Shown here in pieces: positions 1 through 676 of a stretch of DNA of 676 bases (its first letter is position 1; each line of letters begins with the position of its first letter). The translations under genes were made by a program, and so were the position numbers. Under the pieces are notes generated by a model. The model searched no databases and was not told the origin of the DNA. It saw only the letters and a program-made list of their open reading frames with translations. Origin of the DNA: Escherichia coli (lineage in GTDB: Bacteria; Pseudomonadota; Gammaproteobacteria; Enterobacterales; Enterobacteriaceae); the NCBI RefSeq assembly GCF_003334405.1, contig NZ_QOWM01000057.1; one strand, given 5' to 3'.

Positions 1-676
1 GTAAGTCACTGTGTGGATTATCATAACGGTAGCGGGTGATATCGCCGTCAGGGGCAGTTTCCTGAATCAGACGGCCCCATTCATCATATTCCCGGCGTAT
101 TTCCAGCCCGTCAGGCCCGGTGGCTGACGTTAACTGGCTGTGGTGGTTATAGTAAAACGCCGATGCCCTGCCATCCGGCGTGGTGATGCGCGTGATGAGG
201 CCCGTCACCACATCCGGACTGTATTCTGTTGTCCTGCCTGCGGCATCCGTCTGTGCCCTGAGCCTGCCCACCGCGTCAAACTGACTCTGCGTGACGCTGC
301 CGTCCGCGTGTTCCTTTTTCACCACCCGCTTCAGCCCGCCTTCACCCTGCGTGTGCAGGACTTCACGGCGGTTCAGGCTGTCGGTGATGGTGATGCGGTC
401 CTTCTCATACTGATACGTGTAACTTAAGCCTGCCGGGTTTAGCTGTTCTGTCACCCGCCCGTCGCTGTCGTAACGGTAACAGATTTCCGGTCGGCCCGTG
501 TGACGGTGCGCCACCATCCGGCCCCGGTATTTATCATCGTAAGTAAAGCTGCGCACCTGTGTATTGCTGCGGTCATACACCGCCGCCAGTTCGCCGCGGG
601 GCGTCCAGCCATAGCGCACCAGCGGCGCGGCAGGTAAATTCTCCGGGTATTCCGGGTCGTGCGTCAGCCACACGGC
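1..676 (-). CDS. rhs: Rhs-family YD-repeat protein, internal core fragment (partial at both ends; gene continues beyond both window edges)
   Basis: Hand translation of the reverse complement in the frame with codons at 676-674 ... 4-2 gives 225 codons with no stop: AVWLTHDPEYPENLPAAPLVRYGWTPRGELAAVYDRSNTQVRSFTYDDKYRGRMVAHRHTGRPEICYRYDSDGRVTEQLNPAGLSYTYQYEKDRITITDSLNRREVLHTQGEGGLKRVVKKEHADGSVTQSQFDAVGRLRAQTDAAGRTTEYSPDVVTGLITRITTPDGRASAFYYNHHSQLTSATGPDGLEIRREYDEWGRLIQETAPDGDITRYRYDNPHSDL. It contains repeated YD / YDxxGRL-type motifs (VYDRS, FTYDDKYRGRM, YRYDSDGRV, FDAVGRL, EYDEWGRL, YRYDNPHS), the hallmark of Rhs/YD-repeat cores. I recognise the sequence from memory as closely resembling the E. 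coli Rhs core, but I cannot tell which paralog (rhsA/B/C/D or other) from this fragment, so the symbol is the generic family name. No start or stop codon is present in the window, and position 1 belongs to the next codon downstream. Confidence 0.9.

Follow-up and report, generated by a model that had tools for sequence, protein, structure and literature searches.

The 676-nucleotide stretch of Escherichia coli DNA analysed here (the window) is almost certainly an internal part of rhsC, encoding about 10 YD-repeat hairpins that would form an early segment of the wall of the Rhs shell. The YD motifs that a first-pass annotation, which did not recognize the named and long-studied gene, had noticed along the minus-strand translation were confirmed, and their interpretation as Rhs repeats is supported by the family profiles and by a structural model. 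It was on the Rhs genes of E. coli K-12 that the YD repeat was defined, and solved structures of several Rhs cocoons are available. The window, the gene and its repeats are therefore already known, and nothing about them is new; the window belongs to the founding example of the Rhs family itself, which goes beyond mere likeness to that family. The description of Rhs elements in K-12 dates from 1984, when they were recognized as substrates for recA-dependent unequal crossing-over, and five loci, rhsA to rhsE, as well as an RhsABCF subfamily have been defined (PMC2935791). As the K-12 Rhs elements have long been studied, our results carry little weight as a discovery. The value of the check is that a call based on motifs alone proved right, that the gene could be named and that the register of the repeats is now exact, with ten hairpin units of 21 to 22 amino acids.

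Identity of the window

Minus frame 1 of the window, read from position 676 to position 2, contains no stop codon and encodes 225 amino acids, and all other frames are broken by stops. The window matches the rhsC gene of E. coli K-12 MG1655 at 676 of 676 nt (100% identity), and residue mapping places its product at residues 293 to 517 of the 1,397-residue RhsC protein (WP_000015200.1; Rhs subfamily RhsA/B/C/F), with no difference between the two. The feature in the MG1655 record, "rhsC: rhs element protein RhsC," has 1,397 codons and is flanked by ybfA and ybfB. The rhsC frame stays open past both ends of the window, with base 1 opening the codon that follows, and GC3 in minus frame 1 is 0.69. 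Nothing in the analyses contradicted the assignment to rhsC or the predicted fold. The assignment, which is based on the open frame, the nucleotide identity, the residue mapping and the GC3 value, is as follows.

2..676, minus strand: internal rhsC coding segment (RhsC residues 293 to 517)

In the K-12 genome, rhsC alone is 100% identical to the window; the paralogues rhsA and rhsB each match it at 652 of 676 nt (96.45% identity) and thus differ at 24 sites. Across strains, the assignment to a locus is less specific, because a perfect copy of the window in strain CFSAN061761 sits at the rhsA locus, in an rhs gene that is interrupted by IS3 before the tip. This fits the known exchange of Rhs cores. 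An intact K-12 rhsC gene is accordingly not the sole candidate source: the window could derive from an rhs core elsewhere on the chromosome or in another strain, for instance at the rhsA locus of a strain other than K-12, or from an rhs gene that has been disrupted. In a megablast search of complete E. coli genomes, 3,885 of 5,426 contained the window (median copy number per genome, 3), many of the matches were perfect, and 590 records hold a copy with at least 99% identity, which makes an origin at another locus possible. However, among the matches listed, 18 of 20 perfect ones are annotated as rhsC, and this together with the 24 sites that set rhsA and rhsB apart in K-12 leads us to regard another origin as unlikely, if by no means negligible. 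Even then, the encoded peptide and its predicted role in a YD-repeat shell wall would be unchanged.

The rhs gene of CFSAN061761 that holds the perfect copy lies between yibF and yibA (L004 6740-10552), with the window copy at 9001-9676 and IS3 separating the gene from the tip. The presence of this copy at the rhsA locus suggests that core sequences are exchanged between rhs loci.

It is also conceivable that the YD motifs are a chance pattern, produced by translating GC-rich noncoding DNA, or that the real gene is a 95-amino-acid open reading frame (ORF) with a GTG start at 140-427 on the plus strand. One weak, sigma-70-like promoter site is present upstream of this ORF (124-153), and it was the only match in the promoter scan of the window. 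However, only the minus frame is open over the whole window, the GC3 value suits that frame, and the RefSeq annotation shows rhsC alone here, leaving the 95-amino-acid ORF unannotated. The profile matches described below range from 1e-7 to 1e-132, and none of the shuffled sequences reproduced the observed motif counts or periodicity. A scan of the window against Rfam at an E value of ≤1 returned no family, and a terminator scan of the window returned none. We therefore give a chance or plus-strand explanation practically no credence. The 95-amino-acid ORF (140-427, plus strand) is most likely a shadow ORF lying antisense to a GC-rich gene.

Family membership and register of the repeats

The first-pass annotation had proposed a profile hidden Markov model (HMM) scan and a structure prediction of the extended ORF, and both gave positive results for Rhs repeats of an encapsulation shell. 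The Pfam family PF05593 (RHS_repeat) matched the window five times at E values below 1e-3 (1.8e-7 to 9.4e-4), with a sixth, weak match in addition, and TIGR01643 (YD_repeat_2x, a 42-residue double unit) scored 67.6 bits (curated cutoff, 15.8) over four stretches of the window, the best being window residues 181 to 216 in the region of unit 9. The window thus contains tandem units of about 21 amino acids that score above the profile thresholds, which places it among the Rhs/YD-repeat proteins. At a finer level, window residues 1 to 225 align with residues 301 to 525 of NF041261, the NCBIfam equivalog "RHS element core protein" (E value of 1.5e-132; 443.7 bits, a score expected for a fragment), and the full-length gene scores 2,683.5 bits over model residues 1 to 1261, against a cutoff of 2,000. 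This score, and a GC-rich core of about 1,200 amino acids that is joined at PxxxxDPxGL to an AT-rich tip, identify the protein as an RHS core equivalog. In the full-length gene, the Rhs_assc_core domain covers RhsC residues 1170 to 1247, and Pfam assigns DUF6531 to residues 46 to 123 and RHS to residues 1143 to 1179. The family is very large: when 1.84 billion representative proteins were scanned with HMMER, 132,201 matched at an E value of ≤1e-3, of which 12,324 were at ≤1e-30.

The register of the repeats was determined from the Pfam matches, a 36-sequence family alignment and the structural model. After a short lead-in, the window consists of ten units of 21 to 22 residues, the last of which is cut by the window end. 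All are on the minus strand and are listed here in the order of translation, each with the evidence on which it was placed.

620..676, minus strand: lead-in, one strand (AVWLTH) and a proline-rich loop, DPEYPENLPAAPL; AlphaFold2 secondary structure
560..619, minus strand: unit 1, VRYGWTPRGELAAVYDRSNT, degenerate YD unit (YxW..xxGxL) that holds VYDRS; consensus VRY.Y...G.L..V.DR.G
485..559, minus strand: unit 2, QVRSFTYDDKYRGRMVAHRHTGRPE, YD unit with a turn two residues longer; retranslation, family alignment and model
422..484, minus strand: unit 3, ICYRYDSDGRVTEQLNPAGLS, canonical unit (YxYDxxGRV); Pfam RHS_repeat at window residues 69 to 100 (E value of 5.7e-6)
368..421, minus strand: unit 4, YTYQYEKDRITITDSLNR, YxYE unit without the Gly and with a short turn; retranslation, Pfam and model
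296..367, minus strand: unit 5, REVLHTQGEGGLKRVVKKEHADGS, degenerate unit, family variant YxFxGEGGLxRLV; Pfam at window residues 117 to 149 (second half) and consensus
233..295, minus strand: unit 6, VTQSQFDAVGRLRAQTDAAGR, canonical unit (FDxxGRL); best Pfam RHS_repeat match, window residues 133 to 170 (E value of 1.8e-7)
167..232, minus strand: unit 7, TTEYSPDVVTGLITRITTPDGR, degenerate unit; Pfam at window residues 133 to 170 and 158 to 190
104..166, minus strand: unit 8, ASAFYYNHHSQLTSATGPDGL, degenerate YN unit; Pfam at window residues 158 to 190 (E value of 2.2e-5), consensus and model
41..103, minus strand: unit 9, EIRREYDEWGRLIQETAPDGD, canonical unit (YDxxGRL); Pfam at window residues 197 to 219 (E value of 3.7e-6) and model
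2..40, minus strand: unit 10, ITRYRYDNPHSDL, YxYD unit without GR, truncated by the window end; retranslation and model

Unit 10 continues in RhsC as PCATEDATG..., and unit 1 corresponds to the weak Pfam match, at window residues 26 to 59 (E value of 0.11). In the model, the strands of unit 1 are at RhsC residues 312 to 316 and 322 to 326, those of unit 5 are at 396 to 402 and 409 to 414, and those of unit 7 are at 441 to 446 and 453 to 457; in unit 3, the DSDGR turn is located between strands 357 to 361 and 367 to 371.

Retranslation returned the exact peptides for all six motif strings that had been listed previously, at 506-580, 443-478, 380-415, 245-283, 56-94 and 2-31. The spacing given for them, roughly 20 to 40 residues, does not hold: the period is a uniform 21 to 22 amino acids, and gaps of 40 residues appear only because three degenerate units within them (VLHTQGEGGLKRVV, EYSPDVVTGLITR and AFYYNHHSQLTSA; the GEGGLKRV, YSPDVVTGLI and FYYNHHSQL units) were skipped. 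These units are matched by Pfam (window residues 117 to 149 and 158 to 190), and the family consensus shows them to be conserved variants. The string at 506-580 includes a canonical unit, FTYDDKYRGRM, but the YD of VYDRS in the same string belongs to the unit before it, unit 1, and occupies the place of the second turn there, for which the family alignment has the consensus V.DR.G..VR. Likewise, the residues G-R-L/V, described as following YD, stand directly after YDxx in three units only, YDSDGRV, FDAVGRL and YDEWGRL (of the YEDWGRL type); one further unit, YDDKYRGRM, has them after a longer turn.

To assess chance, the same 225 amino acids were shuffled 5,000 times for motif counts and 2,000 times for self-similarity. 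The motif [YF][DEN]xxG[RNKQ] was observed 3 times (0.06 expected), [YF]x[YF][DEN] was observed 5 times (0.26 expected), and G[RK][LVIMTA] was observed 6 times (0.79 expected), counts that none of the 5,000 shuffles reached for any of the three motifs. The BLOSUM62 self-similarity of the window peaks at lags of 21 (z score of 5.9) and 64 (z score of 6.0 to 6.1), and 0 of the 2,000 shuffles reached either value; over RhsC residues 340 to 780, the z score at lag 21 is 8.9. At the DNA level, the window contains no meaningful direct or inverted repeats, and the periodicity is thus confined to the protein, as in an old, diverged protein repeat.

The lag of 64 reflects the placement of the canonical YDxxGR[LV] units, which occur exactly every 64 amino acids, at RhsC residues 361, 425, 489 and 553, with two degenerate units between each; the first three are at 422-484, 233-295 and 41-103 of the window, and the fourth is outside it. 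This spacing is retained in the family consensus. A duplicated super-repeat of three hairpins and 64 amino acids was considered and rejected: the degenerate units score -9 to -34 against their counterparts three units away, and the signal stems only from the canonical units, of which those at residues 361, 425 and 489 resemble one another (scores of 25 and 22), as does the one at 553. Whole blocks of 64 residues show no mutual similarity. Past RhsC residue 553, canonical units occur every 21 residues. An HMM of the 21-amino-acid unit seeded on the canonical units recovered canonical units only and was too narrow for counting the degenerate ones, and hence the units were counted by Pfam, the family alignment and the structural model instead.

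Predicted fold and solved relatives

A structure of RhsC residues 48 to 1247 was predicted with AlphaFold2 from the 36-sequence alignment (RhsC and 35 of the HMMER matches). The model has a mean pLDDT of 87.8 and a pTM of 0.80 and is almost all β. Within it, the 10-residue blocks of the window have pLDDT values of 88 to 97, almost all of them exceeding 90, and the window comprises 20 β-strands in about 10 hairpins, with two strands per unit and a distance of about 11 residues from the start of one strand to the start of the next. Each YD/DxxG motif falls on the turn of a hairpin. In the canonical units, the aromatic-x-aromatic residues end a strand, D-x-x-G-R makes the turn and L/V opens the next strand. 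The model therefore has the features expected of YD repeats that fold as β-hairpins and build a continuous, spiraling β-sheet shell. According to this prediction, each repeat of 21 to 22 residues would form one β-hairpin, in which aromatic-x-aromatic-Asp ends the first strand, DxxG(R) makes a tight turn and the return strand begins at the L/V-x-x of the repeat. The hairpins would join edge to edge into a long antiparallel sheet that spirals into a hollow shell, the Rhs cocoon, with the window as an early segment of its wall.

In a Foldseek search against the PDB, the model matched solved Rhs cocoons best, headed by Tse5 (8cp6_B; E value of 7.1e-96, TM scores of 0.80/0.88, 32% identity) and followed by 8qja, 7q97, 8uxt, 8qjb-d, 7pq5 and 8h8a/b and then by teneurins and TcdB2-TccC3. 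The sequence of the window alone also finds Tse5 (8cp6_B) at an E value of 1.7e-36, in a contiguous alignment of window residues 12 to 222 with residues 213 to 422 of the shell chain; after Tse5, it finds Tre23/Rhs1, RhsA, Tse15, the Advenella and Salmonella bongori cores, RhsP and teneurin-like proteins. Whole RhsC aligns with the Tse5 shell chain at an E value of 1e-125, with RhsC residue 48 corresponding to shell residue 1. Tse5 (PA2684) of Pseudomonas aeruginosa, determined by cryo-electron microscopy (8CP6), is thus the closest solved relative. The two proteins share a barrel of YD hairpins and a DPxGL aspartyl protease plug, and a short PAAR-like N terminus may be a further common feature. 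However, the C-terminal toxin of Tse5 (Tse5-CT) is a pore former, whereas the RhsC tip belongs to no recognizable family, and Tse5 is a demonstrated substrate of a type VI secretion system (T6SS), whereas K-12 rhsC has no adjacent T6SS genes. The barrel of Tse5 consists of 40 β-hairpins with the consensus YDXXGRLV, whose DXXGR residues form the turn and whose Tyr is directed toward the cavity (PMC10684867).

Other T6SS Rhs cocoons are RhsA of Pseudomonas protegens (7Q97), Rhs1/Tre23 of Photorhabdus laumondii (7PQ5), Tse15 (8UXT), the Advenella and S. bongori Rhs cores (8QJA-D) and RhsP (8H8A/B). These proteins share the spiral β-sheet shell of YD repeats with plugs at the N and C termini, at about 20 to 25% identity, sequence E values of 1e-19 to 1e-22 against the window and Foldseek TMq scores of 0.60 to 0.76, but differ in their toxins and in their N-terminal modules (prePAAR-TMD-PAAR, a VgrG fusion or a clade domain). 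The YD shell of teneurins and the TcB-TcC cocoon of ABC toxins have the same architecture and are distant relatives, with 10 to 15% identity, TMq scores of 0.3 to 0.5 and Foldseek E values of 1e-34 to 1e-42; by window sequence, teneurin-like proteins are found at an E value of about 2e-11. Teneurins are eukaryotic and uncleaved, with a toxin-like domain outside the shell, and TcB-TcC is a two-protein shell that docks on TcA (PMC8765631).

An older view sees the YD repeats as an extended, surface-exposed array that binds carbohydrates or other ligands and forms no encapsulation shell, and the early literature did tie the YD-repeat domain to carbohydrate binding (summarized in PMC2935791). However, all homologues with solved structures form closed cocoons, the confident RhsC model superposes on the Tse5 shell with the TM scores given above, and the Tyr of each Tse5 repeat points into the cavity (PMC10684867). 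For the window, we consider an open binding array to be very improbable.

The rhsC locus and the proposed working of RhsC

The analyses established the identity of the gene, the anatomy of its repeats, its family membership and its predicted fold; encapsulation, autocleavage, delivery and immunity are processes that we infer for RhsC by analogy. The cocoon, a PxxxxDPxGL autoprotease and the release of the toxin have been described for homologues (PMC8765631; PMC8636562). Judging from these, the shell (approximately residues 48 to 1247) would enclose a variable C-terminal toxin (residues 1248 to 1397), which an aspartyl autoprotease within the Rhs-associated core would set free. Catalysis is predicted to depend on D1221 and D1243, which are part of DPIGL...PISNIDPLGL, with DPIGL at RhsC residues 1221 to 1225 and PISNIDPLGL downstream at residues 1238 to 1247. 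The two aspartates are 22 residues apart, matching the catalytic pair of P. protegens RhsA, D1324/D1346 (PMC8765631). As in homologues, a short PAAR-like N terminus might attach the toxin-filled shell to a VgrG spike, so that type VI secretion would carry it into a neighboring cell, and the small downstream gene ybfB would be expected to be the immunity gene that protects the producer.

At the N terminus, Pfam called no PAAR domain in RhsC residues 1 to 1197. RhsC residues 2 to 29, within residues 1 to 47 (L001 9412-9552), have a weak match to the last or single PAAR repeat (4jiv_D, E value of 0.034; SalCis10, E value of 0.0046), and the layout of the RhsC N terminus parallels that of the 47-residue PAAR-like Tse5-NT. 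The N-terminal cleavage site of Tse5 has been mapped between K47 and P48 (PMC10684867), and H47-P48 of RhsC aligns with this site, P48 being the first residue of the shell. At the other end, the tip (residues 1248 to 1397; L001 5362-5811) had no Pfam match even at an E value of ≤10, and YbfB (ybfB; L001 5033-5359) had no NCBIfam match, so that these profiles assign neither a toxin activity to the tip nor an immunity role to YbfB.

The order of the K-12 locus is ybfA, rhsC, ybfB, an orphan rhs-CT, ybfC and ISAs1 remnants, with the kdp operon upstream. No vgrG or T6SS gene adjoins rhsC at this locus, and the linkage looked for in a T6SS effector was thus not found there, which counts against the proposed delivery of RhsC in K-12. 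K-12 itself is a strain that we take to lack a functional T6SS. In an in silico study of enterohemorrhagic E. coli, RhsA, RhsB and RhsC were likewise not linked to vgrG, and the translocating VgrG, if any, was left open (PMC7216683). As the shell, autoprotease and tip are intact and yet no vgrG or T6SS gene is linked, RhsC in K-12 might act without type VI secretion, as an intracellular module resembling a toxin-antitoxin system, or serve mainly as a substrate for recombination. Intracellular action of this kind has been reported for Salmonella Rhs elements (PMC7043789). We hold a role without type VI secretion to be rather improbable for RhsC.

The composition of the gene also separates the core from the tip. 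The GC content is 0.60 to 0.66 in the core and approximately 0.38 to 0.40 in the last ~450 nt of rhsC and in ybfB, with a sharp break inside the gene (L001 5359-9552), and a GC-rich core with an AT-rich core extension has been described for Rhs elements (PMC2935791). The cores of K-12 RhsA, RhsB and RhsC are 97% identical, and their tips are approximately 17% identical. The break in composition is consistent with a separate acquisition of the tip and immunity module. Downstream of rhsC and ybfB (L001 285-5002), there is an orphan Rhs C-terminal fragment, annotated as a pseudogene and GC rich at approximately 4100 to 4900, together with ybfC; these are followed by three transposase pseudogenes of the ISAs1 family (H-repeat), in the classic layout of a composite Rhs element.
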